Origin: Nemertoderma westbladi
Lineage: Eukaryota > Animalia > Xenacoelomorpha
Direction: 5' to 3'
Assembly (NCBI GenBank): GCA_032718475.1
Contig: JAUCBJ010006757.1
Coordinates: forward strand, 18,822 to 82,821
Length of the DNA: 64,000 nt
Below the pieces are notes generated by a model. It was not told where the DNA came from. It was given only the letters and a program-made list of their open reading frames with translations, and ran no database searches. Positions 27,200 through 63,829 of the stretch are shown here, in pieces (the first letter of the stretch is position 1; the number at the start of each line of letters is the position of its first letter). Both the position numbers and the translations under genes were made by a program.

Positions 27200-30100
27200 G
27201 CCTCCCTCCCTCCCTGACCCAAGGTAAGTTGAGAGCCTCCCTCCCTCCCTGACCCAAAGTAAGTTGAGAGCCTCCCTCCCTCACTAACCCAAGGTAAGTT
27301 GAGAGCCTCCCTCCCTCCCTGACCCAAAGTAAGTTGAGAGCCTCCCTCCCTCCCTAACCCAAAGTAAGTTGAGAGCCTCCCTCCCTCCCTAACCCAAGTA
27401 AGTTGAGAGCCTCCCTCCCTCCCTAACCCAAGGTAAGTTGAGAGCCTCCCTCCCTCCCTAACCCAGGGTAAGTTGAGAGCCTCCCTCCCCCCCTAACCCA
27501 AAGTAGGTTGAGAGCCTCCCTCCCTCCCTAACCCAAAGTAAGTTGAGAGCCTCCCTCCCTCCCTAACCCAAAGTAAGTTGAGAGCCTCCCTCCCTCCCTG
27601 ACCCAAAGTAGGTTGAGAGCCTCCCTCCCTCCCTCACCCAAGGTAAGGTGAGAGCCTCCCTCCCTCCCTAACCAAAGTAAGTTGGGAGCCTCCCTCCCTC
27701 CCTAACCCAAAGTAAGTTGAGAGCCTCCCTCCCTCCCTAACCCAGGGTAAGTTGAGAGCCTCCCTCTCTCCCTAACCCAAGACAAGTTGAGAACCTCCCT
27801 CCCCCCCTAACCCAAAGTAGGTTGAGAGCCTCCCTCCCTCCCTAACCCAAAGTAAGTTGAGAGCCTCCCTCCCTCCCTAACCCAAAGTAAGTTGAGAGCC
27901 TCCCTCCCTCCCTGACCCAAAGTAAGTTGAGAGCCTCCCTCCCTCCCTGACCCAAAGTAAGTTGAGAGCCTCCCTCCCTCCCTAACCCAAGGTAAGTTGA
28001 GAGCCTCCCTCCCTCCCTAACCCAAGGTAAGTTGAGAGCCTCCCTCCCTCCCTAACCCAAGGTAAGTTGAGAGCCTCCCTCCCTCCCTGACCCAAAGTAA
28101 GTTAAGAGCCTTCCTCCCTCCCTAACCCAAGGTAAGTTAAGAGCCTCCCTCCCTCCCTAACCCAAAGTAAGTTGAGAGCCTCCATCCCTCCCTAACCCAA
28201 GTAAGTTGAGAGCCTCCCTCCCTCCCTGACCCAAAGTAAGTTGAGAGCCTCCCTCCCTCCCTAACCCAAATAAGTTGAGAGCCTCCCTCCCTCCCTAACC
28301 AAAGTAAGTTGAGAGCCCCCCTCCCTCCCTAACCAAAGTAAGTTGAGAGCCTCCCTCCCTCCCTGACCCAAAGTAAGTTGAGAGCCTCCCTCCCTCCCTG
28401 ACCCAAAGTAAGTTGAGAGCCTCCCTCCCTCCCTCACCCAAGGTAAGGTGAGAGCCTCCCTCCCTCCCTAACCCAAGGTAAGTTGAGAGCCCCCCCCCCC
28501 CCTCCCTAACCCAAGGTAAGTTGAGAGCCTCCGTCCCTCCCTAACCCAAGTAAGTTGAGAGCCGCCCTCCCTCCCTCCCTAACCCAAAGTAAGTTAAGAG
28601 CCTCCCTCCCTCCCTGACCCAAAGTAAGTTGAGAGCCTCCCTCCCTCCCTCCCTAACCCAAAGTAAGTTGAGAGCCTCCCTCCCTCCCTAACCCAAGTAA
28701 GTTGAGAGCCGCCCTCCCTCCCTGACCCAAAGTAAGTTGAGAGCCTCCCTCCCTAACCAAAGTAAGTTGCGAGCCTCCATCCCTCCCTGACCCAAAGTAA
28801 GTTGAGAGCCTCCCTCCCTCCCTAACCCAAATAAGTTGAGAGCCCCCCTCCCTCCCTAACCCAAGTAAGTTGAGAGCCTCCCTCCCTCCCTGACCCAAAG
28901 TAAGTTGAGAGCCTCCCTCCCTCCCTAACCCAAATAAGTTGAGAGCCTCCCTCCCTCCCTAACCAAAGTAAGTTGAGAGCCCCCCTCCCTCCCTAACCAA
29001 AGTAAGTTGAGAGCCTCCCTCCCTCACTAACCCAAGGTAAGTTGAGAGCCTCCCTCCCTCCCTGACCCAAAGTAAGTTGAGAGCCTCCCTCCCTCCCTGA
29101 CCCAAAGTAAGTTGAGAGCCTCCCTCCCTCCCTCCCTAACCCAAAGTAAGTTGAGAGCCTCCCTCCCTCCCTAACCCAAAGTAAGTTGAGAGCCTCCCTC
29201 CCTCCCTAACCAAAGTAAGTTGCGAGCCTCCATCCCTCCCTGACCCAAAGTAAGTTGAGAGCCTCCCTCCCTCCCTAACCCAAGGTAAGTTGAGAGCCTC
29301 CCTCCCTCACTAACCCAAGTAAGTTGAGAGCCTCCCTCCCTCCCTGACCCAAGGTAAGTTGAGAGCCTCCCTCCCTCCCTGACCCAAGGTAAGTTGAGAG
29401 CCCCCCTCCCTCCCTAACCCAAGGTAAGTTGAGAGCCTCCCTCCCTCCCTCACCCAAGGTAAGGTGAGAGCCTCCCTCCCTCCCTAACCAAAGTAAGTTG
29501 GGAGCCTCCCTCCCTCCCTAACCCAAAGTAAGTTGAGAGCCTCCCTCCCTCCCTAACCCGGGTAAGTTGAGAGCCTCCCTCCCTCCCTCACCCAAGGTAA
29601 GGTGAGAGCCTCCCTCCCTCCCTAACCAAAGTAAGTTGAGAGCCTCCCTCCCTCCCTGACCCAAAGTAAGTTGAGAGCCTCCCTCCCTCCCTAACCCAAG
29701 GTAAGTTGAGAGCCTCCCTCCCTCCCTCACCCAAGGTAAGGTGAGAGCCTCCCTCCCTCCCTAACCAAAGTAAGTTGGGAGCCTCCCTCCCTCCCTAACC
29801 CAAAGTAAGTTGAGAGCCTCCCTCCCTCCCTAACCCAGGGTAAGTTGAGAGCCTCCCTCTCTCCCTAACCCAAGACAAGTTGAGAACCTCCCTCCCCCCC
29901 TAACCCAAAGTAGGTTGAGAGCCTCCCTCCCTCCCTAACCCAAAGTAAGTTGACAGCCTCCCTCCCTCCCTAACCCAAAGTAAGTTGAGAGCCTCCCTCC
30001 CTCCCTGACCCAAAGTAAGTTGAGAGCCTCCCTCCCTCCCTAACCCAAAGTAAGTTGAGAGCCTCCCTCCCTCCCTAACCCAAGGTAAGTTGAGAGCCTC

Positions 30101-30503
30101 CCTCCCTCCCTCACCCAAGGTAAGGTGAGAGCCTCCCTCCCTCCCTAACCCAAGGTAAGTTGAGAGCCTCCCTCCCTCCCTCACCCAAGGTAAGGTGAGA
30201 GCCTCCCTCCCTCCCTAACCCAAAGTAAGTTGAGAGCCTCCCTCCCTCCCTAACCCAAAGTAAGTTGAGAGCCTCCCTCCCTAACCCAAGGTAAGTTGAG
30301 AGCCTCCCTCCCTCCCTCACCCAAGGTAAGGTGAGAGCCTCCCTCCCTCCCTAACCAAAGTAAGGTGGGAGCCTCCCTCCCTCCCTAACCCAAGGTAAGT
30401 TGAGAGCCTCCCTCACCCAAGGTAAGGTGAGAGCCTCCCTCCCTCCCTAACCAAAGTAAGTTGAGAGCCTCCATCCCTCCCTGACCCAAAGTAAGTTGAG
30501 AGC
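27200..30503. repeat. ~31-32 bp minisatellite (CCCAAAGTAAGTTGAGAGCCTCCCTCCCTCCCTAA), ~100 units
   Basis: Directly visible tandem array. Confidence 0.97.
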
Positions 30504-35030: not shown

Positions 35031-35292
35031 GTTCGTAAATTTTGGTTGGTAAATTTTCGCTGGAGTAGTTTATTATATTTTGCGCTTATTTTTGAAATTT
35101 CTCGCGTTTTACATAAAATTAGCGGGAAGGTTTGAAAACTTAAAATGCGTTTTTCTCAGCATTTTATTTTTCGTGAAATTTCGAAATAAATGTACCTTTT
35201 TCTCGAGAACGGCTTGATGGAATAGGCTGAAATTTTCGCAGCAGGTTTTTAGTAGTGAGACACAATTGTGGAACCTCTAAAAACATAATATG

Positions 35293-36520
35293 TGTTCGCG
35301 CTTTTGAAGACCTTTAGCAGTTTAACCTGCCAAAATTTATGTCTTTTAGTTAATTAACACACCTTTAGCATACGACAATATTTTATGCTAATAAACAAAA
35401 CATTAGCCGAAGCCAGCCCATGCGCGATCATTCACCCGATGGATCTACACCCGGGAGGCTGAATTCGGATGCTTAGATTTTATTATTGCAGTGTAAGGTT
35501 GCAGTGTAAACCTATTGTATTATTCGATAGATCGTTAATATGTAATTTCTGACAGATATTATTAACTTTCGGGAAATATTAACAGTTCCTTTAGGACGTG
35601 GCGCTCTATCTATTTAAACAGAGCTAGGACTTATACTAAACGCAACGATAAGGCTTATGATTAAAGTATAAGTCGCATTCTTTAGGAAATGCTTTGTTAC
35701 CAGTCACATCACACTCACAATCATGCACACTATTCTGCCGACCGTCAGTATATTTGATCACACCTAAAGAGAACAGCAATTGACTCAGGTAGTGTCTACT
35801 AAATAACATTAGATTCAATACACACCACATTGATATAAATCGCAATTGTTATATATAGCCCGCCTCTCTAACCTGTAGTGTATCAAGAAAATTGGGAATT
35901 TTGGGTGATTTATCCGTATTCTCCAAAGAGCAATATTTCCATCAACAAATAGATACAATTAATAACTGACGGTAAATAGCAGTACAAACAATATGATTAG
36001 TGCAGTTAAATTAAGTGAGGTAACACCGCCGGTAACAGTTATACTTTCTATAATCTAAGCAGTTTTACTAGAGTTCTTAGAGCCGGTGTTTCTGGCTTAG
36101 ACAGCAATAACAACAAAGTATCAAGTAAAAGCAGTAAGACTGAACACTCTCCTTATGATCGGCTGAAAAGCTACACGTCGACAGGAAAAATCGCTCTGAT
36201 TGGCTCAAGCCAAACAAAGAACTATGCGTCCAATGGATGTTTCCATGTCAGCAACCAGCTGTTAGATGTCGTAATATGAATCATCACGGCTAAGCTGTGA
36301 AAGGTAGTTGGTGCATTACAGGTTTTTTGCCTTACCATGTCCGCCAAAACACGTATATAGCAGAATGACTTTTATGTCCGTTAAAACACCTGTAACGGTA
36401 CCTTGCGGGCGAGGGGAATATATATACAGTTAGAGAACCTTTTTAGAGTATTCCAGCGCCTGGGGGGAAACTGGATTGCGAAGCAAAAGGGGCCAGTTAT
36501 ATCCCACAGAAGCTTTTACA
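35293..36520 (-). repeat. 3' LTR of element 2
   Basis: TGTTCGCG...CTTTTACA. By eye it differs from the 5' LTR only by a 2-bp AT indel. Confidence 0.97.
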
Positions 36521-36598
36521 CCGCTCCCAGAAAATGGGATTTGAGTCTATAAATATACAAAAATCACAGTTTCTAATATACGTAAATACTCTAAACAG

Positions 36599-38048
36599 TT
36601 AGTCTTTCTTGCGCGGACGGCGTTTACGCAGTTTTTTAAAGCTAGCAAGAGTCCTTTTCTCTTTGGGGCGAGCCACTTTACGAGGAGGGCTATAACTCCT
36701 GGGTGAAGGGTGCAATATGATTGCATCAGAAGGTATGGGATTGCGATCGGTATATCCGCCGGTCGAAGTACCGGGTTGATTGACATCAACGTCCGGGGAG
36801 AGGGGTCTAACGGCTTTGAGAGCTCGTTTCAAGACAGCCGCTCTTACGGGTCCTTTACGAGTGGTCTGAACGAGGGCCGTGGGTGGACCATAGGCAGTTA
36901 GAAACTTCCTTGGTTTAATGGTTCTTTCCAACTCGCGTTCGCGGGCTCTGTACTCGTAAGGCCGTCGATATACTTCCTGTAACTCAGGGTGTGAGTTGAC
37001 AAATAAGTCTCCATAGGCCGGATCTTGACGGATAAAGTTTATTAAGTTATACGAATTGATGTCACTCGGATTAATGCTCCTGAGGAATTTGCGTACATAT
37101 TTGGTTGAAATACATTCTCCAACGCGCTTCAATAGTTCATAACTTGATAGGCGCGATTTCTGCTCGACGGAGGCAAACAAATATGGATGGAACGCATAAA
37201 CTCCTTCGTAGGCGCTTCCAGGATAATAGCGATGGCGTGAATCACAATGTAAATCAGCGTTCGCTTCCCAAGCTCTGATGTAACGTAGTGTGATCATTTC
37301 ATCTACGCTTTCCAAATCGTGATTAAAAGGGCAATCGAAACTGGCATGTCTCCTTTAGTTGACAATGGTGACATTGAGTCATAAATTGAGGGCAAACCGC
37401 AAAAATATGCAAATTATTAAATCTGCAATACGCGCAATAAATTTCCATCGCCGGTTGTTCGTGGAAATAGGAACAGCGGACGTTTGTGTCCATGGGCGTA
37501 ACATGGTCTCTCGATGCGCATAACCGACAACGTTGCCGAGAAACATAGTTGGCATGGCGATAATCGTACGCAGTGAGACACTGTGGACTTTGATACCATT
37601 CTAGGATGTAATCGTTGTCGCTGTTCCGAGCGCGATAGGCTGAATCTCCTCAGATTCTAGACATATTGGTTCGTCTTCCCAGTCTGTTACGAATAGAATT
37701 TTCGTGATCTATTCTCGGTTTATCGTTACGACGCCGCTGGGTATGATATTTAAATAGAACCATTTCCCTTTCGGTGTCTACATCGTCCGTATCATGTAAA
37801 TCGATAGGATGGCCAGTAGTTAAGAAGTCCATATACGTACCATTACGATTCGTATAGCGAGCGGTGAATTTTCTATAGTCCAATTCACGCGTAAGTTGTT
37901 CCTGGGACATCGGCGGTTCGATATAGCGACCATCGTCCTCCGTAATGGTTGGATCGGTTTCACCGCGTATCAAGCTATCCACAAACGCTTGTAAAGGTAG
38001 AGTATATCGCTCTCTAATACCAAGGTCATCTTCTATCAATTCCGTCAT
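36599..38048 (-). pseudogene. Accessory ORF of element 2 (~480 aa when repaired): conserved N-terminus, three CCHC-type zinc knuckles, basic C-terminal NLS-like tail
   Basis: Reading through the TGA at 37650-37652 gives CRLCASRDH...C and CAYCRFNNLHIFAVC. Removing 1 nt at ~37351 gives CHHCQLKGHASFDC and joins the 36599-37315 ORF ending KKLRKRRPRKKD. Confidence 0.75.
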
Positions 38049-39672
38049 ATCTGCTATCTGAGTTTATTAATATCAGTATGAGTTAATATTTAGGCAAGCG
38101 GGCGTCGCTGCCTACTAGTCTTTGCCCCCGGACAGTGGGTTTCTCAGCGCCGATGTACCGTCGTCGCGGTGTTTACGCCAACATGTAGCAACAGCACGAC
38201 AACGATAACCGGCACAAGTCCCACCACTGTCCGTCCCAAAGGCTTGAATCCACTTAAGGTTATCTCGGTAGAGTTAGGGCTACTTTACAATTGCGATTAG
38301 CTACTGTAAACACACTTTAGTAGTAACATTCACCTATAAACGCACAAATTCCATACAATCATTACTTACTGCACACATGCAGGCCATTTGTCCGTTAATC
38401 AGTGTCTTCCAGAATGTCACGTTATTACTATGTATCCTTGGATACTAATAGTGCGCTATGTATACTCTTATGCTACGCAATGGGGCAAGCTTTTTATTGT
38501 TCCTTTAACTTGCTTCTAATTCTAGCGTGGGTGTTGCCATGGTGACATTATGGAAAACTAGCGGTAGAATTAGGGTAATTCTCATGCATACAGATCTGGG
38601 ATGCTATTTAATAGTAATTCTTTAATTGTCAATATCCTCTTTATGCATGATTTTATAAATTTTATCGGCTATTGACTATATGTTGGAGATTCTCACACTC
38701 TAATACACTCAATATGAATCTCCGCTCCCATGATCTATTAATTACTGGAATTTTGGGAATGTTATAAATTGCACAAAATGACAATTTATGAAATTCATTT
38801 GAATATGAATTTAAATTTATTCCCGTGAATTTTATTATTTGATGTTAAATTGACACAAATTTTATTCCAGAGCATATCTGGGGACTTAGGATCCTTAATT
38901 CTATAAAATAGTCCTTCTAAGAATATCGGTAAATACTGCGATATCTGAATTGACTAGAAATTTTAAAGGATCGGGATTTTACAGATTTTAATAAATATTA
39001 AATTAATATTTAGGATGGGCACCGATTTATTCCAGAACTTGTCTGGGGACATTAACCACTGATTCTAGAATTTGTCTTTCAAGTATATCGGTGGGTGCCA
39101 CGATATCTTAATCGACTGGAATTACAGAAGGTCAAAAGTTTAACAGATTTATTTGCGATTTACGCTACTGTTAGAGGGACATCACGCTACTATATGTATT
39201 ATTTGTTATAAGGTAGAAGAGCAATATCGCACGAAGCAATGTCAGTGTGAAGAGGCAAGTCGTTTCCAAGGTCTACCCAGAGCTTGGTTTAGCCGAGACA
39301 CGAGGATCTGAACTTTGCATTCCTAATACTCTGCCTACCAATAATACTTAAATATAGTAGGAGCTTTATTGTACTTTAATAAGTACGGACATTTCATCTT
39401 ACTGTAGTCACGTATTTATAATATGATACGGACAGTAAGGAAAGAGAAAAAATAATTATTTCTCGCCGTCGCACTAAATATATATTATAAATAATTACGT
39501 ACGTAATAAACACTAATATATTGCACTAATCTACTAAATAATCCCTAAAATAACATTCTACCAAATAAAATTAAAGAAAACGATTATAATAATATTACAT
39601 AATAATACATACATAAATATAAAATAAAAACAAATATAAAATGATATAGTCACACACCCACTCCATATGTTA

Positions 39673-42600
39673 TTACGTTATGGAGTCCCTAGATATTTGT
39701 CGGATTAGGGAAGTGGTCGTAGGAAGAGTATCTTGCCTTCCATAGTTTCCGGACAGTTTTCGGTCTCTTTCCAGTAAACATAAACGACCAGCTGGGTGAT
39801 TGGGTTGTCGTGTTACTTTCTCCGCTCCCTTGGCCTGTCTAATCTCAGCCGGGTTAAGGTGGGGAGGCCATTCATCTTCTTCTTTACTTAGGGAGTCGGG
39901 TCCACCTAACCAGCCGGGAGTATCTATCCGTTCTTGAGGAGTCGCTCCTCTGGAAGCGATGTCGGCTAGATTAATCATCTCGGGGCGATGTCTCCATTGA
40001 TCTTCATTGGAGTTAATATCGTCATTATCTGAGGAGTATGGTGTTCCCTCAGTTAGTTCGTCCACTTCACTGCTCTCCACTTCCCAACCATTTATCTGGC
40101 ATATTCTTTCTGGTGGTAGTCTCTCTTCGAGAGTTCTGCGGGAAGGGCCAGTAAAGTACCAACCTACTCTAGTTCTTACCGCATAGGTTTGTAGTGGCTG
40201 CGGTTGAGCAGGTCGTTTTTCCAATGTCTCGAGCGCCTCGTGCGCGTTTTGGCCGATAAGTATTTGCACTCCAGGATAATCCGTCTGGAATCGAGGTATC
40301 TTAAGATGTTGGATGCTCTCATCCTCGTCCCAATTATAAAGGTCTGCTTGGGTAGTAGCGAAGTTCTTTATAGCCACCATTTTTACTGACCTTATACTTT
40401 GTGCTCCTAATTTATCCTGGGGGGTGGACAACGCACCTACATAGTAATCTGCCGTTATGGTAGATTTCCAAACCTGTATAATTCCTGACATATTCAATTT
40501 AGTCCGGAACTTGGGTTGTCCAGCAAAGATATCTTCGGCTAGTTCTTGATCGATGAATGTTCCTGTGCTGCCGGAGTCAAGTAGGGCGTTCACTATGTAA
40601 CTCTTGTTGGGACCATGAACTCGAACTTGCACTACAGGAAATTCTCTTATTCCTATGTTGGAAGTTGGAACTTTCCAAGATGGTTGTTTGTCAAAAGGAG
40701 TTGGAGTAAACTCGTCAGTGTCCTTTTCATCCGTAAGTGCTCGATACACTGTGGTATTTATTAGGTAACAGGATTCGTTGGCGTCGGAGAATTCGTCCGT
40801 ATAGAATCCTTCCCACTCAGAACTTTGGTCAGTGTCGTTCACATCACTGAATTGGACATGTGATTTGGGCTCACTTACCTGACTCGGGCTGTTTCGTTCG
40901 AATTCACTTTGTAACAAGATGTGATGCTTCGCACCGCACTTTGCACACTTTATGTCGGAGTAACAGGTTCGCCGCTGGTGTCCGCGTCTGAGGCAATTAT
41001 AGCATAACCGCTTGTCCCACACAACTGTACGTCTGTCTACAAGGGATTTCTTTAGGAATTCCGCACACGCACTCAAACGGTGGGGCCCGTCGCACAGCGC
41101 ACAGTTGGGTTTAATGTTACTCACCTTATTTTGGGTGACGTTATGCACTCTAGTTCTTTCTTCGGGCTTTCTTCCGAGTACTCTGTTAGGAAACTGAAGA
41201 GGAGTCTTAGCAACCTGTTCTCTCCTGTCATGGGTTCGAGCTTTAGATTTACTTACGTTCTTTGAGGTCTTGTTAACATAGTAAAATTTCTCGGTGTCTT
41301 CCTCGCTGTCTTCTTCTTGAGAAGCTTGGCTTTCGCCGTCATCAGTATAACACACCGGTGTTACTCTTCTCCTAGAAACGGGTTTCTCACTTACCTTATT
41401 TTCCGGTGTTTTCTCTCTGGATTGCTTTAGGAGTTGTAATTTCACTTCGCCATCCAAGAATGACATGAGATCAGCCATGGTAGGGTCTCGTTGTTGTTGT
41501 TCCATCGTATATAACACCTTCTTGTCCCAGCGTGTACCTACTCCACCCTTGGGCAAAGTAGATGCTAAGGCTCCTACAACCATAGAATTCTGGTATTCAT
41601 GAGACTTACCTAACCAATCTAGTTGTCTACAGATCTCCTGAATCTCATCGGAAAACTCTATAATCCCGCTGCTAAGAAACTTTCGGGGGGCCATTAATTT
41701 CGCATATAAATACCTAGCTATGTTATTCCTATTACCATACCTGATGTTTAGTGTATCCCAAACTTGTCTTAATCCATCTGGATGTCCAATAAATTTTAAC
41801 GCCATTGACTTGGGAGGTCCTTCCAAGCACTCGATGAGGAATCTAAGTTTCTCTCCGTTGGATAACACAGAGTTCTGTATGTTATCTTTATAATATTCAT
41901 TAAAAGGTAACCATTTCATCTCATCTCCATTGAACTTGACTATCTCTCCAACCTTTACCGCTTGACGGGCTTCGGTTCTAGCCATTTGACGCGTAAAACT
42001 TTCTTGGGCCATCGTGTTATTGAATATCGAGTTATCGGTATATAAATTTCTCGAATTATTATCAAGTCTATTGGGAATGTCATTAACAACAGGCGTATAA
42101 TCACCCTTAATAGGGTTTGCTATAGGAGTTTCTACTTCACTAGCAGTATAGATGCGTGTAGGCTCCACACCTTGCGCATGTAATACTTCAGACCTAACAG
42201 GCTGACACACTGTTACAGGGGTTATTGGTATTCCCTTTTGTAGGTTGACTAATTTGTCGCATTCTAGTGCGATACTTTGCTGCACTTTTTGCAACTCTAA
42301 CCTACTTTCCCTTACTGTTCCCTTGAGCTGCTGAACAGTCTCTTCCATTTCCCTGACCTGCTGAGAGGAGCACAAACAGTGTTCCCTCAGCTGCTCGAGC
42401 AGGAGACCCATCTCCCGTCGTCCCTCAGCTACCCACTCAACCGCCGAAGCGGGAGTCGCCAACGTAGTAGCGGGCGAGCGAGAGACGACGGGCGATAAAT
42501 TCTTGATACCTCGCTCGGCGTCCAGGACGGGTTCGGACTCGGGAACAGTCCTACTGGGCACAGGTAGTCTTCTGGTTTGTTTCTTCAAGTAATCTTGTTT

Positions 42601-42777
42601 CGCCTGAAGGTTTTCCAGCTCTAGTTGGATAGTCGCTTCAGACGTCTTCCGTTCTGCTTCTGCCACTGCCTCTGCCGCTTTTCTGTCTTCTCTCCTTTCA
42701 AGACACTGTCCAAGTCGACGACTCATTCTAAAACCCTCTAAGAGACTATCTGACAATGTTTGTGTTGTGTCAGACAT
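39673..42777 (-). CDS. Gag-protease polyprotein of element 2 (1034 aa), with RT, RNase H and integrase deleted in frame
   Basis: Colinear with element 1 Gag/PR. PYSSDNDD jumps to DQWRH..NLADIASRG..KGAEKV, then to GRLCLLERD and the native C-terminus. Confidence 0.92.
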   Translation of the reverse strand: MSDTTQTLSDSLLEGFRMSRRLGQCLERREDRKAAEAVAEAERKTSEATIQLELENLQAKQDYLKKQTRRLPVPSRTVPESEPVLDAERGIKNLSPVVSRSPATTLATPASAVEWVAEGRREMGLLLEQLREHCLCSSQQVREMEETVQQLKGTVRESRLELQKVQQSIALECDKLVNLQKGIPITPVTVCQPVRSEVLHAQGVEPTRIYTASEVETPIANPIKGDYTPVVNDIPNRLDNNSRNLYTDNSIFNNTMAQESFTRQMARTEARQAVKVGEIVKFNGDEMKWLPFNEYYKDNIQNSVLSNGEKLRFLIECLEGPPKSMALKFIGHPDGLRQVWDTLNIRYGNRNNIARYLYAKLMAPRKFLSSGIIEFSDEIQEICRQLDWLGKSHEYQNSMVVGALASTLPKGGVGTRWDKKVLYTMEQQQRDPTMADLMSFLDGEVKLQLLKQSREKTPENKVSEKPVSRRRVTPVCYTDDGESQASQEEDSEEDTEKFYYVNKTSKNVSKSKARTHDRREQVAKTPLQFPNRVLGRKPEERTRVHNVTQNKVSNIKPNCALCDGPHRLSACAEFLKKSLVDRRTVVWDKRLCYNCLRRGHQRRTCYSDIKCAKCGAKHHILLQSEFERNSPSQVSEPKSHVQFSDVNDTDQSSEWEGFYTDEFSDANESCYLINTTVYRALTDEKDTDEFTPTPFDKQPSWKVPTSNIGIREFPVVQVRVHGPNKSYIVNALLDSGSTGTFIDQELAEDIFAGQPKFRTKLNMSGIIQVWKSTITADYYVGALSTPQDKLGAQSIRSVKMVAIKNFATTQADLYNWDEDESIQHLKIPRFQTDYPGVQILIGQNAHEALETLEKRPAQPQPLQTYAVRTRVGWYFTGPSRRTLEERLPPERICQINGWEVESSEVDELTEGTPYSSDNDDINSNEDQWRHRPEMINLADIASRGATPQERIDTPGWLGGPDSLSKEEDEWPPHLNPAEIRQAKGAEKVTRQPNHPAGRLCLLERDRKLSGNYGRQDTLPTTTSLIRQISRDSIT

Positions 42778-44648
42778 TTCGCTTTATACAGTTGGATGCC
42801 TACTGCTATATATACAGTTAAAGCAAGTCTAGTAATTCAGTATCACTGCTAGCCTAATAATTAATTACCGATACTGCTACTCAATGTAGCGTGATATATA
42901 TATATAATATATTAGAATACCGGTATGCTTATAGTATATATAAGTATTATTACAGACGAGATTTGTCACAGAGTACCGGTATATAAATTTAGCACAAATA
43001 TATATAAATATATAATAGGCCTATAGTGAATACCGGTATACAGCTTACACTTATAGTATATATAAGTATAATTATGAACTAGAATTAATTACAGAGTACC
43101 GGTATGATTTCAGCTCAAATTTATAGAAATAAATATAATAAGCCTATGGTAAATACTGGTATGTCAATTATTTTAGAATAATTGAATTTCTGAATATTTT
43201 AGGGTTACTTGGTTACTTTAACTTACTTTATTACCGTTATTTAAGCAGTAGTCCAACTGATATTGAGACCTAGTTGTTGTATGGCAGGCCTACTATTTAT
43301 AAATCGTTTGAGTTGATTTATAATATTTATATACCAGTTTAAAATGGGTTTTTGTCAATATTTGAAATAAATGTTATTATTTCTGGGGGAGTCACTACAC
43401 AGAAGCTGAACGCCTCTCAGTGAAGTGCTATTTATTTGACACTAAAACTGATAATTCTAATTTACCTAAGTTACTTAATACTACAAATTACTTACGATAC
43501 GGGTGAGATTAATTCTCTAATTAAACACAACAAAATATTACGTACGAAATTTTTAGGGTAATTTTACAGGAAGTCTACAAACCAGTCCAACAAAGGGTTA
43601 GATTTCTGGTTATTACAAAGGACAGGGTACTACGGTATTTAAATAATAAGTAGTAGTAAATATATTGTACTGTCCAGATAGGAAAATACCACCGCCTGAC
43701 GACCTATAACCGTATCGCTATAGGTACTACGTTATGTATCACGGATTGTTCCTACCCAGAAGCTAATAGAGCTAACGAATGTGCCTATCAACCACTTTAC
43801 AACACAAATATAGCCTACTGCCTACACTAATTACTTCGGAAAGCACTGTACACTAAACCCTAAATTAGGTACAAGTACCGGTATAACAAATAATCAGTAG
43901 TTAAATATACTTGAACAGTTAAAAGAACCACGGCATCTGCTGGAGTGACCGAAGCACAAAATCTCCAGTCTTTACCTACGCCGAGCAGCCCTGATGTAGT
44001 ACCGGGGTTAGTTTAACTATAACGGTATGTATAACAAGCACAATTACTGTAGGAATAAACTTGGGGACATGAATGTTGCGAATAATCGCATAAACTAGTG
44101 TATTACGGTACCTGAACAGACCACACAAACAAACACAGGCTAAAACACTGGCAGACTACGATCAAGCCTAAATAAACTACAGTATATGCAGATTCTGAAA
44201 CTGTTAGTTAGTATGCGTTCTAACACGGTAGTACGACTTATTCTTTAAGAGGGGATTGACCTTCAGCATATGGCTGCCCCAACTTACTAACGGCACTTTA
44301 TCAGACAAACTCTACACACGCCGTAATCTCTCCAAACCCAACAACAGTCAGACAGCAGCTCAGCCTACAATTATCTGAACAATCTGAGCAGGGTCACACG
44401 CCTTCTGCTCAATATTAGCCTACTAGTAAATAAAACCGACAGAAATAAGTAAACTATACAAAAGAATGAGGGGTGATCAATCCCTATTCCCCTGGCAGCC
44501 TACAATATACAATAGATCACAATCGAAATAATACTAAATGTACTTGTACAGCAGTACCGGTACCGGTGATGACAGTTAGGCCTACAGACCTACAGAAATA
44601 CCGGTTACTACGGTATTTTGCAACCTTATTGCCTACTGCAATAAGATC

Positions 44649-44659
44649 ATAACTGTTAC
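44649..44659 (-). other. Non-tRNA primer-binding site of element 2 (GTAACAGTTAT)
   Basis: Abuts the 5' LTR. A perfect 11-nt partner lies in both LTRs (45401-45411 and 36032-36042). Confidence 0.78.
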
Positions 44660-45889
44660 TGTTCGCGCTTTTGAAGACCTTTAGCAGTTTAACCTGCCAA
44701 AATTTATATGTCTTTTAGTTAATTAACACACCTTTAGCATACGACAATATTTTATGCTAATAAACAAAACATTAGCCGAAGCCAGCCCATGCGCGATCAT
44801 TCACCCGATGGATCTACACCCGGGAGGCTGAATTCGGATGCTTAGATTTTATTATTGCAGTGTAAGGTTGCAGTGTAAACCTATTGTATTATTCGATAGA
44901 TCGTTAATATGTAATTTCTGACAGATATTATTAACTTTCGGGAAATATTAACAGTTCCTTTAGGACGTGGCGCTCTATCTATTTAAACAGAGCTAGGACT
45001 TATACTAAACGCAACGATAAGGCTTATGATTAAAGTATAAGTCGCATTCTTTAGGAAATGCTTTGTTACCAGTCACATCACACTCACAATCATGCACACT
45101 ATTCTGCCGACCGTCAGTATATTTGATCACACCTAAAGAGAACAGCAATTGACTCAGGTAGTGTCTACTAAATAACATTAGATTCAATACACACCACATT
45201 GATATAAATCGCAATTGTTATATATAGCCCGCCTCTCTAACCTGTAGTGTATCAAGAAAATTGGGAATTTTGGGTGATTTATCCGTATTCTCCAAAGAGC
45301 AATATTTCCATCAACAAATAGATACAATTAATAACTGACGGTAAATAGCAGTACAAACAATATGATTAGTGCAGTTAAATTAAGTGAGGTAACACCGCCG
45401 GTAACAGTTATACTTTCTATAATCTAAGCAGTTTTACTAGAGTTCTTAGAGCCGGTGTTTCTGGCTTAGACAGCAATAACAACAAAGTATCAAGTAAAAG
45501 CAGTAAGACTGAACACTCTCCTTATGATCGGCTGAAAAGCTACACGTCGACAGGAAAAATCGCTCTGATTGGCTCAAGCCAAACAAAGAACTATGCGTCC
45601 AATGGATGTTTCCATGTCAGCAACCAGCTGTTAGATGTCGTAATATGAATCATCACGGCTAAGCTGTGAAAGGTAGTTGGTGCATTACAGGTTTTTTGCC
45701 TTACCATGTCCGCCAAAACACGTATATAGCAGAATGACTTTTATGTCCGTTAAAACACCTGTAACGGTACCTTGCGGGCGAGGGGAATATATATACAGTT
45801 AGAGAACCTTTTTAGAGTATTCCAGCGCCTGGGGGGAAACTGGATTGCGAAGCAAAAGGGGCCAGTTATATCCCACAGAAGCTTTTACA
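44660..45889 (-). repeat. 5' LTR of element 2
   Basis: Direct repeat of 35293-36520, followed by TSD ATATG. Confidence 0.97.
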
Positions 45890-46719
45890 ATATGTTTAAA
45901 ACAATTATCAAATGTATTTCTAATATAAACTTCGAAAATGTGTCATTTTTGGTTTTTGGTGCAATTAAGTGACCCTCAAACATAGACACAAAAAAATTTC
46001 AATTTTTTTTAGGTTCCAGGTGTGTCTCGATAGGTACTCCGACCTTCTGGAAATTTTCATGAAATTCCATGTTGTATTTAGTTGTTCTACTGTAGAAAGT
46101 TTTAAGTACATAACTACAAATAATTCCCCACAAATAAATAAAATGAAATTCTCCATTGTTCATAATTAGCACTTTAATGTTTTACTGCCCATATTTTATT
46201 ATTTCCCTGCTATCAGGTCTTGAACTAATAACACAAGCAGCTGTCGGTCGATTAAGCTACAATTTTGCAATTTCTACAACAAATCTAGTGATAGGAAATA
46301 GTCGAAAGATGCACTTTTGTTCTGTTTTCTAGAAATTTTAGTGAGAAAAAATGTGGACTTTTCAGATAAAAATAATTTTTTTGCACAGACTAGCTGAGAA
46401 AAAATGGCCCGTATTTTCGTCTGGTCCTAAGGTACGTGCCTTATATGCCTTAAGGTTAATCCGGCACTGACTTAATGACTTGGTTATTGGGGTGTTTTGT
46501 AGGTATACTGACCCCCTTGTTGGCTTGTTTTTTAAGTTAGGGTTTGTTGGTCAGGCACAAAACCATAATTAAAGCAGTAATTGAACCCTGTAACAATCAT
46601 GAGTTTAAAAAGTCAGAAATTACACAAAATTTATTAGATTAGAGCCTGACTTAGGGTTAGGCATTAGGGTTGAATTGCTGCTTTAATTAGGGTTTGGGCC
46701 GCCACTCTTGTAACCTGCG

Positions 46720-52354: not shown

Positions 52355-55300
52355 TAGGGTGGTCCTTATTTCAATGTAAAATTTAAAAGCTGTGGAAATT
52401 CTCCTCTGACTAGGGTTCAACAGAAGGCACTTTATGGGGCCGAACCGAACCGAACCGAAGCAGGGCCAACTTCGGGCCGAACCGAACCGAATCCGAACCG
52501 AAGTTCAGAAAGTTAGCAAGTTATGGTCATAAATTCGTATTTACATCACTATCAGACTATACTGCAGTACTGGCTGACTGGCAGTGGCAGACTGATACCT
52601 ATTTCGCTATTTGGTCTGCGGACTTAGTGAGAAAGCTATGATTAATTAAAAAAATAAGTACTACAAAGTAAAATTTACATTACTGTACATTACTGTATTA
52701 TTAAGCTAATTGTGAAAACTACCCAAGTAAACCGCAAACAATTAAAAAAATACACAAAAAAATATTACACTTTCAATGGATGTTCCTGCTGGATGTTCAG
52801 TTCAGTATTAAGAAATACTGTTATGCACTTACTGTATGCATGCACTTACTGTATGCAGTATGCACCACATTTTCACCCGTAGTAAGCCGTACAGTACTGC
52901 AGTAGTAACATAAATTTAGAAAACCTCACTAAAATTACAGGTAGTCTTTTGTAATACTATTTATATGACAGTATGAGGTAGTAGATTTAGTGTTAGTATT
53001 ATGTATCAAAGTTATGATTAATTAAAAAATAGGTACCGGTACTACAAAGTAAAATGGCAATATTTAGCCTAACCTAAACTACTACCCAAGTAAACTGGAA
53101 ACAATTAAAAAAATAATGCCATTTAAATGGAAGTTCAGTCCAAAATTAATTAGTACAACGATGGACAGATTGATTAGTCTTACTGTCTTAGCTCAATCAG
53201 TCAATGTAATACTGTAATACTTGGAATATTTAGCAAAGTTTGCTCCGGCCTTCTGCAGTATCAATTGCAGAAGCCGAACCGAACCGAAATTGCCAAACTT
53301 CGGCCCGAACCGAACAGAAGCCGAAGCTTCTGTTGAGCCCTACCTCTGACCCCCCCAAGTCCTTTCTTCTGATAAAAAAACACCTTGAGTAAAATTTGAG
53401 CACAAATGATATATATTTAGAGGTAGCTCAAACACCCTGAAGTTGAGCGTTTGGACACCTTTTGATCGCGCGCGCAGAATATAATGGAGTTTGCTGATAT
53501 GAAGGCTTCTGTTGGTCGTACAGAGATAATTTTAGGCTTGTTTGAACCGCAGTCATCGATTTAGTGGGTGTAGATACCTTCAAAACAAGTGCTAAGCTAG
53601 TAGTTCTTGAGATATCACACAAAAGCTTAAGCCCGGCACAACTCATCAATCGATCATTCAATTGATTACGCCAAGGACATATTGAAATATTGGCATTAAC
53701 ATTTTGTAGGTCTACCTCCCTGCATCTTATTTCAGTTAATCTCGATTTTAGCATTGTCTAACCATTCAACTGTTCAAAGCTATGTTTAGTAAAAAAAATT
53801 CATCACAACCCCATGGGAAATGCTTGCACAAGCATCACTAATTTGTGTCTAAGCGCCATTTGGTACGATATTAATAATTGGCCACAAAACTTAACTTTTG
53901 GTTAATTATATCTAGGAACTGTTCGTTTAATTTGATTTTGACTGATTTTAAGGTGCAGAATCCAAAAATATCATCTGATTTGAATTTTAAAATGATATAG
54001 TGCATGATACTGTGATATACAACAATACCATACTGTACTTCAAAGCATATTAAAAGGATTGATAGATGCAGAGATATGTGCTGTGCAGTGCAGACCATAA
54101 GAGATCTATATGGGAAGAAGCTTTGAACATATGCATTATACATAATTAGACAATGCTGATTCCAAATCTGATTTCAGATTTGCCCTACCTCATCAAGTTT
54201 TCTCACAATTGCCAAATTGAATTCAAAAAACTTATTGCAAACGACTATGATGAGTGATGTAGATTCAAATGAGGATCAAATATGCTCAATATCAATCTAA
54301 AACATTGAAAGGAGCTTTGTTTATATGAATTATATATAATTAAAACAATGCTGATTCTAAATCTGCTTTCATATTTGTCATAGCATATCAAGTTATTTTC
54401 AAAATTACCAATTTAAGTTCAAATTACTTATCGCGAACAACTGTAAGGAGAGAAGTTGATTAAAAAATAATCAAATATGCTCAAAATCAATCTACAACAT
54501 TGAATGGAGCTTTGTTCATATGAATTATATATAATTAAACAATGGTGATTCCAAATCTGCTTTCAGATTTGCCATGCTGCCATAGCATATCAAGTTTTTT
54601 CACAATTGCCAATTTGAGTTCAAATTACGTGGTAATTATGTGGTAGGGCAAATCTGAAATCAGATTTGGAATCAGCATTCTCTAATTATGTATAATACAT
54701 ATGTGCAAAGCTTCTTCCCATATATTAGTTCTCTTTTGGTCGTTGGATGCACATATCTCTGCATCTATCAATCCTTATCTTAAAATGCTTTGAAGTACAG
54801 TATAGTATTGTTGTATATCATGTACCATATCATTTTAAAATACAAATCAGTTGCCATTTTTGGGTTCTGCACTGAAAATCAGTCAAAATCAAATTAAACG
54901 AACAGTTCCTAGATATAATTAACCAAAAGTTAAGTTTTGTGGCCAATTATTGATATCGTACCAAATGGCTGAATGGCGCTTAGACACAAATTAGTGATGC
55001 TTGTGCAAGCATTTCCCATGGGGTTATGACGAATTTTTTTTACTAAACATAGCTTTGAATGGTTAAACAATGCTAAAATCGAGATTAACTGAAATAAGAT
55101 GCAGGGACGTAGACCTACAAAATGTTAATGCCAATATTTCAATATGTCCTTGGCGTAATCAACCGAATGATCGATTGATGAGTTGTGCCGGGCTTAAGCT
55201 TTTGTGTGATATCTCAAGAACTACTAGCTTAGCACTTGTTTTGAAGGTATCTACACCCACTAAATCGATGACTGCGGTTCAAACAAGCCTAAAATTAACT

Positions 55301-55518
55301 CTGTACGACCAACAGAAGCCTTCATATCAGCAAACTCTATTATATTCTTCGCGCGCGATCAATCGGTGACCAGACACTCAACTTCAGTGTGTTTGAGCTA
55401 CCTCTAATATTTGATGTACATGCTTAAAATTTCGCATGTCGTATTTTTTGACGAAATGGATACATTTGAGGGGGTCAGAGATGATAAATTCCAACCTTTC
55501 AAAATAAGGACCACCCTA
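52355..55518. mobile_element. Non-autonomous DNA element with 8-bp TSD and a long internal palindrome
   Basis: TIR TAGGGTGGTCCTTATTT / AAATAAGGACCACCCTA. TSD GTGTTTAG. Inverted arms at ~53417-54190 and ~54645-55407. Confidence 0.9.
52411..53342. mobile_element. hAT-type MITE with (CCGAA)n subterminal repeats, nested in the previous element
   Basis: TIR TAGGGTTCAACAGAAG / CTTCTGTTGAGCCCTA. 8-bp TSD CCTCTGAC. Confidence 0.92.
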
Positions 55519-56939: not shown

Positions 56940-57200
56940 AGAGAAAGGAGCAGGTTACAGAGGCGGGATTTTCTAACCAAAACAATAAACAGTCACTTTA
57001 CCAATTCAGGGAAAGGAGCAGGTTACAGAGACGGGATTTTCTAACCAAAACAATAAACGATAACATTACCAATTGAGAGAAAGGAGCAGGTTACAGAGGC
57101 GGGATTTTCTAACCAAAACAATAAACGATCACTTAACTAATTGAGGGAAAGGAGCAGGTTACAGAGGCGGGATTTTCTAACCAAAACAATAAACGATCAT
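56940..57200. repeat. Second array of the ~62-bp repeat seen at 2277-3140
   Basis: Four near-identical units. Confidence 0.92.
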
Positions 57201-59139
57201 TTAAAAACCAAAGCAAGAAATCGCACTGTCAGAGGATAGGCAAGTCTGTAGACCGGTAATACTGTAATACTAGGTACCGGCATGCTGTGTACGAAAGTAA
57301 TAAGAGGGCTGTGTTGTCTTAAACTCGAATTGGTACCCCATGATGAATAAATACATGTTCTGGAATGAAGATTTAGTACAGTGTCTCTCATTAACTACCA
57401 GTTAATGTCCCTTCGACTTTGGATATCACTTCACTTCTGTCACTTTCAAAAAGTCAATAGTCCAATGTCAGTATGTTTTTGATAAGCATAAATTTGGCTT
57501 CACCTTCACGCAGTCACGCAAATTTATTAATAATTTCATAAAAATTCGTGTAATATACATACATACCACATCTGAAACATCAATAATTGTTCTTTAACGG
57601 TGATTATATTTAATATATAGATACGTTACGGTAGTTATCTATAATATCTTATAATAACTTTATAATAACAATATAATGCAGTATTTTTTTATTAATTTGC
57701 AGCTATAATATATAATATTTAATTACTCTGATAAAGGAAGCACCAGTTTCAATGTAGATTGTGTCCACAATTAATCTACAGTATTGAAACAGTGAAAAGC
57801 TGGACATTTAGGTGCCGGTTGCGTGGTCTGTCAAAAAAATAAACATTAACCATTAAATAGGGTTAAATGGTCGCCAATTAGGCTATAGTAAGAGGGTGAA
57901 ATTATACAACTTTTACAACTGTTTAACATGTTTCCGTCGTAAAATAATACATTCCGGTATATTATTATATGTATTAATAATGCATATAATAATATATGTA
58001 TTATTTTATGTATTACTATTATCACATATTATCACATAATTATAGCGTTTATTTATATCTTATAACAGTGATTCGTTTATTGTTTTGGTTAGATTTAATC
58101 CGTCTTTAACCAGGGTTTTTAGTGAAAATCTGGTATTCTTCACATGAGAGTGAACTGCAAAATGAAATATAAAGCAGAAAGTCTGGTGTACTTCACATAG
58201 GTCTGGCGATGATAACGTTATTTTTTTTAAGTCTAATTGACTATTCACCATGCCTGGACGTTGAGAATTCCGACGACCTTTCTAGCACCCTTGTCAGGAT
58301 TTTTGAAAATAAAATGCATCCGCAGCTGGAAATTTTCAAAACTTTTAATTTTTTTTAAATATTTATTGTATGATCTATATTCCTGTAATTTATAGGTTTT
58401 CTGTGATTGTGAATGGAATGGTAATAAAATAATGAAACAATGAAAAAAACAAAAAAAAACTATAATGGAATGGGGTATGGCGATTACAGCTGTATAATTT
58501 TTAAGTAGGCCTATAATTATTTATATATTTTACTTTATATACTATAAAATAATCGATTTCCATTAAAATTAATGTTGAAAATGCTCTTTTTACCCTAACC
58601 AACTTAATTAATTCTAATTTAATTAATGAGCTGCTATTATCTTAGCTTCTCGAAGGCCACACAAAAATTCAACTTGGAACATTTCTAAAATTTTGCCAGA
58701 CTACATGTCTACCAAGTTTTGATAGATTTCATTAAGATTTGGCTGAGTTATTAACGTTTAAAATTGAACACAACAGAACACCAGACACACCGATTGAGTT
58801 AGTGGTACCTGTATGTATGTATGCTAAGCTCACTTACTTTCGTGGCTCGCCCCACACGTTAGACCTTATTTTCCATGTTTTTTATATTGACATATACAAT
58901 TTTGCTTTGTAGTTTTTATGATTGTAAATTTATAGTTTTATGATTAACTAATAATTTGTTTATTATTACAGTAATCTAAGCCAATCCCTTCATTTACCCA
59001 TTCAGTCAGTGTATTTATTTCAATAGGTTCTTACTAATTATTACTATTTGTCCCGCATGCAGATTATATACATTTGTTTTATATAATTTAGAGATTTAAT
59101 GTGGGGGGGGGGGGGGGGGAGGTTCATTGTGTGCGATCA

Positions 59140-60023: not shown

Positions 60024-60142
60024 CTATGAAGAGAGAATCGAATGAATCCTTTGATGATAATCCATCAAAACGAACACGAAACAATAGCGGCAGTGCAGTA
60101 CCAAACATACCGATGGAAATACGACTCCTAATCGAGAGCAAG
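60024..60142 (+). CDS. HNRNPK: hnRNP K-like gene, coding exon with bipartite NLS and start of KH1
   Basis: CAG| ... AAG|GTAAGT. MKRESNESFDDNPSKRTRNN...MEIRLLIESK resembles hnRNP [33 protein letters not shown] (recalled from memory). Downstream exons are not in the window. Confidence 0.72.
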
Positions 60143-63100
60143 GTAAGTAACCGGTACAGATACTGTACCGAGAGCAAGGTAAGTAACCGGTACAGATACT
60201 GTACCGAGAGCAAGGTAAGTAACCGGTACCGGTACTGTTCCGAGAGCAAGGTAAGTAACCGATACTGTACCGAGAGCAAGGTAAGTAACACCGGTACCGG
60301 TACTGTACCGAGAGCAAGGTAAGTAACCGGTACAGATACTGTACCGAGAGCAAGGTAAGTAACCGGTACCGGTACTGTACCGAGAGCAAGGTAAGTAACC
60401 GATACTGTACCGAGAGCAAGGTAAGTAACACCGGTACCGGTACTGTTCCGAGAGCAAGGTAAGTAACACCGGTACCGGTACTGTTCCGAGAGCAAGGTAA
60501 GTAACCGGTACCGGTACTGTTCCGAGAGCAAGGTAAGTAACCGGTACAGATACTGTACCGAGAGCAAGGTAAGTAACCGGTACAGATACTGTACCGAGAG
60601 CAAGGTAAGTAACCGGTACAGTACCGAGAGCAAGGTAAGTAACCGGTACCGGTACTGTTCCGAGAGCAAGGTAAGTAACCGATACTGTACCGAGAGCAAG
60701 GTAAGTAACACCGGTACCGGTACTGTACCGAGAGCAAGGTAAGTAACCGGTACAGATACTGTACCGAGAGCAAGGTAAGTAACACCGGTACCGGTACTGT
60801 TCCGAGAGTAAGGTAAGTAACCGGTACCGGTACTGTTCCGAGAGCAAGGTAAGTAACCAATACTGTACCGAGAGCAAGGTAAGTAACACCGGTACCGGTA
60901 CTGTTCCGAGAGCAAGGTAAGTAACCGGTACCGGTACTGTTCCGAGAGCAAGGTAAGTAACCGATACTGTACCGAGAGCAAGGTAAGTAACACCGGTACC
61001 GGTACTGTTCCGAGAGCAAGGTAAGTAACCGGTACCGGTACTGTTCCGAGAGCAAGGTAAGTAACCGATACTGTACCGAGAGCAAGGTAAGTAACACCGG
61101 TACCGGTACTGTTCCGAGAGCAAGGTAAGTAACCGGTACCGGTACTGTTCCGAGAGCAAGGAAATTAACCGATACTGTACCGAGAGCAAGGTAAGTAACC
61201 GGTACCGGTACTGTACCGAGAGCAAGGTAAGTAACACCGGTACCGGTACTGTACCGAGAGCAAGGTAAATAACCGGTACCGGTACTGTACCGAGAGCAAG
61301 GTAAGTAACCGGCACTGTACCGAGAGCAAGGTAAGTAACCGGTACCGGTACTGTACCGAGAGCAAGGTAAGTAACCGGTACAGATACTGTACCGAGAGCA
61401 AGGTAAGTAACCGGTACCGGTACTGTACCGAGAGCAAGGTAAGTAACCGGTACCGGTACTGTTCCGAGAGCAAGGTAAGTAACCGATACTGTACCGAGGG
61501 CAAGGTAAGTAACACCGGTAGCGGTACTGTACCGAGAGCAAGGTAAATAACCGGTACCGGTACTGTACCGAGAGCAAGGTAAGTAACCGGCACTGTACCG
61601 AGAGCAAGGTAAGTAACCGGTACCGGTACTGTACCGAGAGCAAGGTAAGTAACACCGGTACAGATACTGTACCGAGAGCAAGGTAAGTAACCGGTACCGA
61701 TACTGTACCGAGAGCAAGGTAAGTAACCGGTACAGATACTGTACCGAGAGCAAGGTAAGTAACCGGTACCGGTGCTGTACCGAGAGCAAGGTAAGTAACC
61801 GGTACAGATACTGTACCGAGAGCAAGGTAAGTAACCGGTACAGTACCGAGAGCAAGGTAAGTAACCGGTACCGGTACTGTACCGAGAGCAAGGTAAGTAA
61901 CCGGTACAGTACCGAGAGCAAGGTAAGTAACCGGTACCGGTACTGTACCGAGAGCAAGGTAAGTAACCGGTACCGGTACTGTACCGAGAGCAAGGTAAGT
62001 AACCGGTACCGATACTGTACCGAGAGCAAGGTAAGTAACCGGTACCGATACTGTACCGAGAGCAAGGTAAGTAACCGGTACAGTAACCAGAGCAAGGTAA
62101 GTAACCGGTACCGGTACTGTACCGAGAGCAAGGTAAGTAACCGGTACAGGTACTGTACCGAGAGCAAGGTAAGTAACCGGTACAGGTACTGTACCGAGAG
62201 CAAGGTAAGTAACCGGTACCGATACTGTACCGAGAGCAAGGTAAGTAACCGGTACCGATACTGTACCGAGAGCAAGGTAAGTAACCGGTACAGTAACCAG
62301 AGCAAGGTAAGTAACCGGTACCGATACTGTACCGAGAGCAAGGTAAGTAACCGGTACCGATACTGTACCGAGAGCAAGGTAAGTAACCGGTACAGTACCG
62401 AGAGCAAGGTAAGTAACCGGTACCGGTACTGTACCGAGAGCAAGGTAAGTAACCGGTACCGATACTGTACCGAGAGCAAGGTAAGTAACCGGTACCGGTA
62501 CTGTACCGAGAGCAAGGTAAGTAACCGGTACCGGTACTGTACCGAGAGCAAGGTAAGTAACCGGTACCGATACTGTACCGAGAGCAAGGTAAGTAACCGG
62601 TACCGATACTGTACCGAGAGCAAGGTAAGTAACCGGTACCGGTACTGTACCGAGAGCAAGGTAAGTAACTGGTACCGGTACTGTAACTAGAGCAAGGTAA
62701 ATAACCGGTACCGATACTGTACCGAGAGCAAGGTAAGTAACCGGTACCGATACTGTACCGAGAGCAAAGTAAGTAACCGGTACAGTACCGAGAGCAAGGT
62801 AAGTAACCGGTACCGGTACTGTACCGAGAGCAAGGTAAGTAACCGGTACTGTACCGAGAGCAAGGTAAGTAACCGGTGCCGATACTGAACCGAGAGCAAG
62901 GTAAGTAACCGGTACAGTATCGAGAGCAAGGTAAGTAACCGGTACCGATACTGTACCGAGAGCAAGGTAAGTAACCGGTACCGATACTGTACCGAGAGCA
63001 AGGTAAGTAATACCGAGAGCAAGGTAAGTAACCGGTACCGGTACTGTACCGAGAGCAAGGTAAGTAACCGGTACTGTACCGAGAGCAAGGTAAGTAATAC

Positions 63101-63829
63101 CGAGTGTAAGGTAAGTAACCGGTACCGGTACTGTACCGAGAGCAAGGTAAGTAACCGGTACAGTACCGAGAGCAAGGTAAGTAACCGGTACCGATACTGT
63201 ACCGAGAGCAAGGTAAGTAACCGGTACCGGTACTGTACCGAGAGCAAGGTAAGTAACCGGTACAGTACCGAGAGCAAGGTAAGTAACCGGTACTGTACCG
63301 AGAGCAAGGTAAGTAACCGGTACCGGTACTGTACCGAGAGCAAGGTAAGTAACCGGTACCGATACTGTACCGAGAGCAAGGTAAGGAACCGGTACCGATA
63401 CTGTACCGAGAGCAAGGCAAGTAACCGGTACAGTACCGAGAGCAAGGTAAGTAACCGGTACTGTACCGAGAGCAAGGTAAGTAACCGGTACCGGTACTGT
63501 ACCGAGAGCAAGGTACGTAACCGGTGCCGGTACTGTACCGAGAGCAAGGTAAGTAACCGGTACCGGTACTGTACCGAGAGCAAGGCAAGTAACAGGTACC
63601 GGTACTGTACCGAGAGCAAGGTAAGTAACCGGTACCGATACTGTACCGAGAGCAAGGTAAGTAACCGGTACAGTACCGAGAGCAAGGTAAGTGACCGGTA
63701 CTGTACCGAGAGCAAGGTAAGTAACCGGTACCGGTACTGTACCGAGAGCAAGGCAAGTAACAGGTACCGGTACTGTACCGAGAGCAAGGTAAGTAACCGG
63801 TACCGATACTGTACCGAGAGCAAGGTAAG
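60133..63829. repeat. ~30-38 bp minisatellite (CGAGAGCAAGGTAAGTAACCGGTACCGGTACTGTAC), ~100 units
   Basis: Tandem array whose first unit is the exon 3' end plus the splice donor. Confidence 0.97.

Follow-up and report, generated by a model that had tools for sequence, protein, structure and literature searches.

Self-priming is listed for the Tf1/sushi group and Tcn1 (gypsy), and predicted for the TAR lineage (copia) (PMC6317226; PMC4600332; PMC6934838; PMC3601003; PMC5443660). In Tf1, pairing with the PBS involves the first 11 bases, and the cut by RNase H falls between bases 11 and 12 (PMC7175516). About half of the Tf1 cDNA keeps a full copy of the PBS at its 3' end, and this PBS starts with ATAAC (PMC11042837), the same five bases that open the PBS of one of the two elements described here, E1. 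Both E1 and its neighbour E2 resemble Tf1 and Tf2 of Schizosaccharomyces pombe, Tj1, the Tf1/sushi group and Tcn1 (Ty3/gypsy) in that a PBS of 11 nt, lying beside the LTR end, is complementary to a segment of the LTR and there is no tRNA site (PMC7175516; PMC4600332; PMC6317226). They differ from Tf1 in their superfamily (BEL/Pao, not Ty3/gypsy), in a loop of 723–741 nt, in being known here from DNA sequence only, and in having relatives whose primer is mostly split by a predicted intron and whose PBS lies 0–5 nt from the LTR. E1 and E2 most likely work like Tf1 without belonging to the Tf1/sushi group, as the domains of E1 are those of BEL/Pao and not of a Ty3/gypsy chromovirus polyprotein. 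The TAR lineage of plant Ty1/copia elements (Houba, Osr-1) is predicted to self-prime from an LTR complement of at least 10 bp located 0–5 nt past the 5' LTR; the method of that study (PMC6317226) admits contiguous primers only. Such a complement is present in E2 and, through its 3' LTR copy, in E1, which belong to another superfamily and another kingdom.

For the family Belpaoviridae, the ICTV describes an 18-nt PBS complementary to tRNA-Arg or tRNA-Gly (PMC8742986). E1 shares with the ICTV description the order Gag-PR-RT-RH-IN, the triple Cys-His box, the LLDSG, YMDD and DAS motifs and LTRs of up to 1.2 kb, and differs from it in length (16 kb versus 4.2–10 kb). The 18-nt tRNA-complementary PBS is absent from both elements, with no TGG after either LTR. 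Their membership of BEL/Pao rests on their proteins, and the ICTV description leaves this branch uncovered. The olive-fly element Achilles is also placed in BEL/Pao. Its tRNA-Tyr site (PMC4580426) is absent from E1 and E2. Fungal GalEa elements of the Copia group, with their Conserved Hairpin Site, are like E1 and E2 in lacking a tRNA PBS and in carrying a near-palindrome right after the 5' LTR; in GalEa the partner is part of the leader further downstream, and an LTR complement was not found by the authors (PMC5445492), whereas in E1 and E2 the partner lies inside the LTR. Four surveys of BEL/Pao do not use the term 'tRNA' in their main text (PMC3118150; PMC554778; PMC6238403; PMC8220671), and PMC3286476 deals with gypsy elements. 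We found no report of self-priming or of a spliced primer in BEL/Pao in the openly accessible papers searched, which were covered mostly by title and abstract opening.

The 64-kb window, which is the whole stretch of DNA analysed, contains E1 (7193–23253) and E2 (35293–45889) as two BEL/Pao LTR retrotransposons, both on the minus strand, as are all of their features given below unless stated otherwise. The 5' LTR of E1 (22085–23253, 1169 bp) and its 3' LTR (7193–8366, 1174 bp) differ by 14 substitutions and 3 indels. In E2, the 5' LTR (44660–45889, 1230 bp, TGT...ACA) and the 3' LTR (35293–36520) are distinguished by one 2-nt indel only. Both elements have the TG..CA LTRs and 5-bp target-site duplications of BEL/Pao, the latter at 7188–7192 and 23254–23258 for E1 and at 35288–35292 and 45890–45894 for E2 (plus-strand coordinates). 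The PPT, GGGAGCGG, comprises 8 nt including one C and lies flush with the 3' LTR in both (8367–8374 in E1, 36521–36528 in E2); together with PBSs that also adjoin the LTR directly, this bears out the original prediction that neither site is separated from the LTR by a spacer.

A single frame in E1 (11606–19807, 2733 aa) encodes a Gag-PR-RT-RH-IN polyprotein of BEL/Pao type, and the order PR-RT-RH-IN is that of BEL/Pao. Its Pfam domains are Peptidase_A17 (2.4e-34), DUF5641 (5.2e-20) and DUF1759 (3.5e-10), plus an integrase zinc finger. The diagnostic BEL/Pao motifs were applied as they appear in PMC554778: the triple Cys-His box is found at residues 1103/1136/1155, the protease LLDxG..LIG at 1276/1384 (LLDSG), the YMDD of RT at 1773, the DAS of RNase H at 1952 (GDAS) and the integrase at 2401–2513. 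Named top protein matches come from sea urchins, a starfish, corals, anemones, a mussel and a fish, at 39–45% identity overall. The open frame of E2 (39673–42783, 1036 aa) covers Gag and protease; in-frame deletions have removed RT, most of RNase H and the integrase core, and across the main internal segments the two elements are 84–87% identical. The deletions were considered as spliced-out introns and this was rejected, there being no GT-AG at the breakpoints. Despite several deletions relative to E1, the E2 frame stays open and ends in E1's own C-terminal residues, and its intactness hints at selection on the Gag of a non-autonomous element. From the pol stop to the 3' LTR, both elements have a further ~3.2 kb with short frames (8367–11605 and 36521–39672), of which a 251-aa frame in E2 gave no Pfam match. 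An Rfam search across the window gave no matches at gathering thresholds.

The PBS of E2 (44649–44659; sense GTAACAGTTAT) adjoins the 5' LTR and is exactly complementary to one site in each E2 LTR, at 45401–45411 in the 5' LTR and 36032–36042 in the 3' LTR. The former is the predicted self-primer, with its 3' end 741 nt from the LTR end. That of E1 (22074–22084; sense ATAACAGATAT) has its exact complement in the 3' LTR (7916–7926, 11/11 pairs, 723 nt from the LTR end). The 5' LTR copy of E1 (22802–22812), from which the primer would be transcribed, forms 10 of the 11 pairs, with a mismatch at 22808 that is most simply a post-insertion mutation, as the 3' copy still matches the PBS. Watson-Crick pairing in both elements covers exactly 11 bp, counted from the first base past the LTR, and the E2 duplex can be extended by one G-U pair. 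As originally predicted, the two PBSs differ at positions 1 and 8 and their partners differ at the corresponding paired positions. The partners also occupy the same aligned LTR columns, beside a conserved AC(G/T)TTCTATAAT, in a part of the LTR that is otherwise diverged (17/49, 26/47 and 21/33 identical positions in successive 50-column blocks, or 35–64%). Directly upstream of the E2 primer lies a conserved block (45412–45423; sense ATTATAGAA.GT) that may be promoter-like or a weak acceptor, and the 55–60 nt of leader behind the PBS cannot be aligned between the elements. The observation therefore stands, with two facts to be added to it that the original account had left out, namely the mismatch in the 5' LTR of E1 and the missing RT and integrase of E2.

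A chance match is improbable, as had been argued, but the figure given for it (3e-4) was about four times too low: dinucleotide shuffles give ~1e-3 per element, with such a complement in 22 of 20,000 shuffled LTRs for E2 and 26 of 20,000 for the 3' LTR of E1. Internal 11-mers with an LTR complement number 4 of 8129 in E2 and 3 of 13,708 in E1, the PBS included. Swapping the partners between the elements weakens the pairing energy from -11.7/-10.5 to -5.7/-6.5 kcal/mol. Were the two sites to drift independently, the probability of keeping all 11 pairs through at least two changes would be 3e-5 to 2e-4 (at 60–80% identity). The E2 primer ends in AC followed by CG and that of E1 in AT. A hidden intron in these primers was tried and rejected: with the best GT-AG split the match reaches 10 nt (offset 1), shorter than the contiguous 11, its donors (GTTATC, GTTACC) are poor, and the covarying last base would fall inside the intron.

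Self-priming in one form or another is, in our judgement, very probable for E1 and E2, and we predict with reasonable confidence that their primer, like that of Tf1, is the 5'-terminal part of the same RNA, acting in cis. In such a scheme, transcription would begin with the first base of the primer (45411 in E2) or close to it, and the RNA's 5' end would fold back to the PBS, leaving a loop of ~740 nt. A cut by the element's RNase H after the terminal A-C or A-U would then free a 3'-OH, and RT would extend the freed primer into U5. E1 retains the YMDD and the RNase H DAS motif; E2, having no RT, would be mobilised in trans. Finally, plus-strand synthesis would copy the primer back into the PBS and so keep the two in step. 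If the primer is copied in this way, as is reported for Tf1 cDNA (PMC11042837), one LTR change could reach the PBS in a single round. The covariation is real and functional pairing of PBS and LTR is supported, but two compensated changes need not be two pairs of selected mutations, as had been proposed; they probably reflect copying of the primer into the PBS, which still points to primer use.

Relatives were sought in metagenome contigs with a profile made from the RT region of E1 and 15 homologues, in a scan covering 28 of 64 parts. The 79 loci retrieved, taken from the best 80 of 544 confirmed matches, form 55 families at 85% nucleotide identity; two scans of viral contigs found no relatives. 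In 11 loci the LTR end could be fixed independently, as the point where two repeats diverge. Removal of L021 and L075, whose repeats do not end in CA, and of L027, a duplicate of L025, left eight families, in which the search for split primers demanded GT and AG only. All eight have a PBS with a self-complement of 10–15 nt. A contiguous complement of at least 10 nt occurs in one of them (L045); in the other seven the match exists only across the GT..AG junction of two LTR pieces lying 72–186 nt apart. The seven donors are GTAAGT (four times), GTAAGC, GTACGT and GTTCGT, and the acceptors are pyrimidine-rich. When GT-AG was replaced by each of 255 other dinucleotide pairs, 0, 0, 0, 1, 2, 5 and 16 performed as well in the seven families, and 0–7 of 500 decoy 40-mers per family, drawn from the same elements, matched the observed length. 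The combined p for the eight families, treated as independent, is 2e-11. Each PBS is fitted best by its own LTR in the cross matrix (8/8 rows), and TGG within 5 nt of the LTR is found in L061 only, at a distance of one base. These distant relatives support a functional PBS-LTR pairing far more strongly than the two copies in the window do.

In a blind scan of all loci with upstream DNA, leader and coding positions were compared at the 60 loci that have a gag start. Hits ending in A-C or A-T made up 26/60 in leaders and 5/65 among coding decoys (p 3e-6), and GTRAG donors occurred in 12/51 and 2/58 of the split hits (p 0.003); both features were combined in 11/49 leader hits and 0/57 coding hits (p 1e-4). 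For contiguous hits taken separately, the A-C/A-T end is found in 5/11 versus 1/8, which is not significant (p 0.18). From these hits a curated set was compiled, partly by eye, for 30 of the 55 families, of which four were added by eye, with ties broken by donor strength. The remaining 25, including L004 and L075 after inspection, gave no call, mostly because the contig apparently lacked an LTR. The 30 curated families have 30 different PBSs, with matches of 10–15 nt and LTR-PBS spacers of 0–5 nt; 23 are split by predicted introns of 66–366 nt and seven are contiguous. Donors, the strength of which served to break ties, are GTRAG in 18 of the 23 split families. The primers end in A-C (26) or A-T (4), the next bases are CG in 15, and in 21 there is an A 12 bases ahead of the primer end. 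The E2 primer end is thus the commonest pattern among these families, and the change at PBS position 1 between E1 and E2 is the one swap that the family tolerates. From primer to LTR end, 25 measured relatives have 46–222 nt, as against 723–741 nt in E1 and E2. The L021 family shows an 11-nt split match by eye, and in L064 the acceptor and a 10-nt second part are present on a contig that lacks the first part.

In a quick RT tree, which has 70 rows but neither a root nor named references, E1 is a long branch (1.92) of unsure placement, so the evidence from the relatives reaches E1 and E2 through kinship. Contiguous and split families are mixed on this tree, and the contiguous label needs five changes, four of them forced by strong branches. 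The LTR intron has accordingly been lost or gained several times. The contiguous L045 is sister to the split L069 (SH-aLRT 99), a direct case of intron loss or gain.

Three other explanations of the pairing were weighed. The primer may be part of the element's own RNA without being the 5' terminus of the same molecule, if the RNA starts about 100 nt upstream, if it is spliced or trans-spliced onto a conserved TAG, or if another LTR transcript supplies the primer in trans. We regard this as unlikely. A TCAGT (-105/-101) and a CCAAT box (-151/-161) common to both LTRs could place the RNA start 100 nt upstream, the conserved block carries a TAG five bases before the primer, and the loop of E1 and E2 is long. 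That TAG would be a weak acceptor, however, with 7/15 pyrimidines upstream (8–14 in the acceptors of 23 relatives) and another AG within 20 nt, and the LTR of E1 contains no GTRAG donor. The abrupt end of the complementarity at 11 nt in both elements is also what is expected if the copied primer ends there. Against an RNA start at the primer itself, neither element has a TATA box ~30 nt upstream of the primer, and a TATA at -30 was rejected as a family marker, being present in one of 30 relatives. Folding bears on both sides: with 12 or 60 extra 5' bases the predicted pairing is still 0.74–0.99 when 30 nt of leader are folded, but it falls to 0.14–0.18 (37 C) with 100 nt. The predicted 5' RNA of E2 folds with the duplex at 0.80–1.0, and since all of 25 shuffled loops fold it at 0.95 or above, the fold is no evidence and the loop adds nothing; for the mismatched 5' LTR copy of E1 the predicted pairing is at most 0.08. 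Both elements have a predicted hairpin close to the LTR end (z -2.26 in E1, -0.62 in E2). Work by Lin and Levin on Tf1-type self-priming reportedly found a supporting U5 stem-loop beside the duplex.

Rather less likely still is that the pairing is a structural stem in the RNA, acting in packaging, dimer formation or translation control, and that a tRNA fragment or other host RNA is the primer. A host tRNA is the family's primer according to the ICTV (PMC8742986), one of the eight bounded relatives (L061) does have its TGG, and GalEa elements carry a non-tRNA hairpin at the same place with no known mechanism (PMC5445492). In addition, both PBSs are near-palindromic, and priming in E1 and E2 is a prediction from their sequence. 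On the other hand, 30 different PBSs in 30 families cannot all fit a few host RNAs, and each fits its own LTR; the pairing always ends 0–5 nt from the LTR end and the 3' end is fixed as A-pyrimidine, which is the geometry of a primer. Very improbable, and largely refuted, is an origin by chance in a common ancestor that passed the match on, or through an inverted duplication of the DNA. A single 11-mer match has a p of ~1e-3, it counts once because E1 and E2 are related, and a near-palindromic PBS would suit such an origin, but the low probability under independent drift given above weighs against it. The original prediction had named an inverted-duplication artefact as what would overturn it. 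DNA duplication cannot skip a GT-AG intron, and it is thereby excluded for the seven of eight bounded relatives that match the LTR only with the intron removed.

Priming by the element's own 5' RNA end thus remains the preferred explanation, and the best reading of the pair in the window is an intron-less, long-loop form of Tf1-like self-priming. We further think it rather probable that a large marine branch of BEL/Pao is tRNA-free and primed by its own 5' RNA end, that in most of its families the primer comes into being only when the host spliceosome joins a first exon of a few bases to a second exon in the LTR, and that E1 and E2 represent intron-less lines that arose after occasional loss. 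In most relatives splicing of the LTR intron would first join the primer, which E1 and E2 would have ready-made, and the copying step would explain why it is the spliced joint to which the relatives' PBSs correspond. With its joint inside the primer, and the primer being cut off, the intron could be retained; the copy read by the minus strand after transfer would be that in the 3' LTR, and an intron spliced out of this copy would be lost.

What is most surprising in these results is the primer of the relatives, predicted to be built by splicing. If correct, the scheme would extend self-priming to a third LTR superfamily, after Ty3/gypsy (shown for Tf1) and one Copia lineage (predicted), and would add a primer assembled by splicing, of which no earlier report was found in the literature searched. 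Replication would then be gated by splicing, and elements of this type would be removed from control by tRNA fragments. The scheme also touches on the order in which self-priming and tRNA priming arose among LTR elements, and it explains why PBS-calling tools would miss such elements.

Several other features were observed among the relatives and in the window. The L066 locus consists of copies, 100% identical, that stand head to tail with a 6138-bp period and one LTR between them; they may parallel the tandems that Tf1 forms through its PBS (PMC11042837), or be an assembly artefact. In L036, L038 and L071, the 2–3 spacer bases after the 5' LTR are, by eye, reverse-complementary to the ones preceding the 3' LTR; E1, E2 and L014 have no spacer bases on either side, and those of L025 show no such relation. 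Between E1 and E2, a single plus-strand frame of 381 aa (25374–26522) encodes a phosphoserine aminotransferase (TIGR01364, 2e-145), intron-free over the matched part. Its best PDB chains are 8a5v and 3e77, which we take to be human proteins. Two unrelated satellites, at 27199–30503 (35 bp x 95) and 60133–63829 (36 bp x 106), each carry the donor hexamer GTAAGT in their repeat unit, in the second within a full AAG/GTAAGT context. An 850-bp inverted repeat (53344–54193 and 54638–55480, 88.6% alike) flanks a 195-bp tandem and may be a foldback or MITE-like element, and one 68-bp minisatellite is present at two sites 54 kb apart (2273–3095 and 56943–57203).
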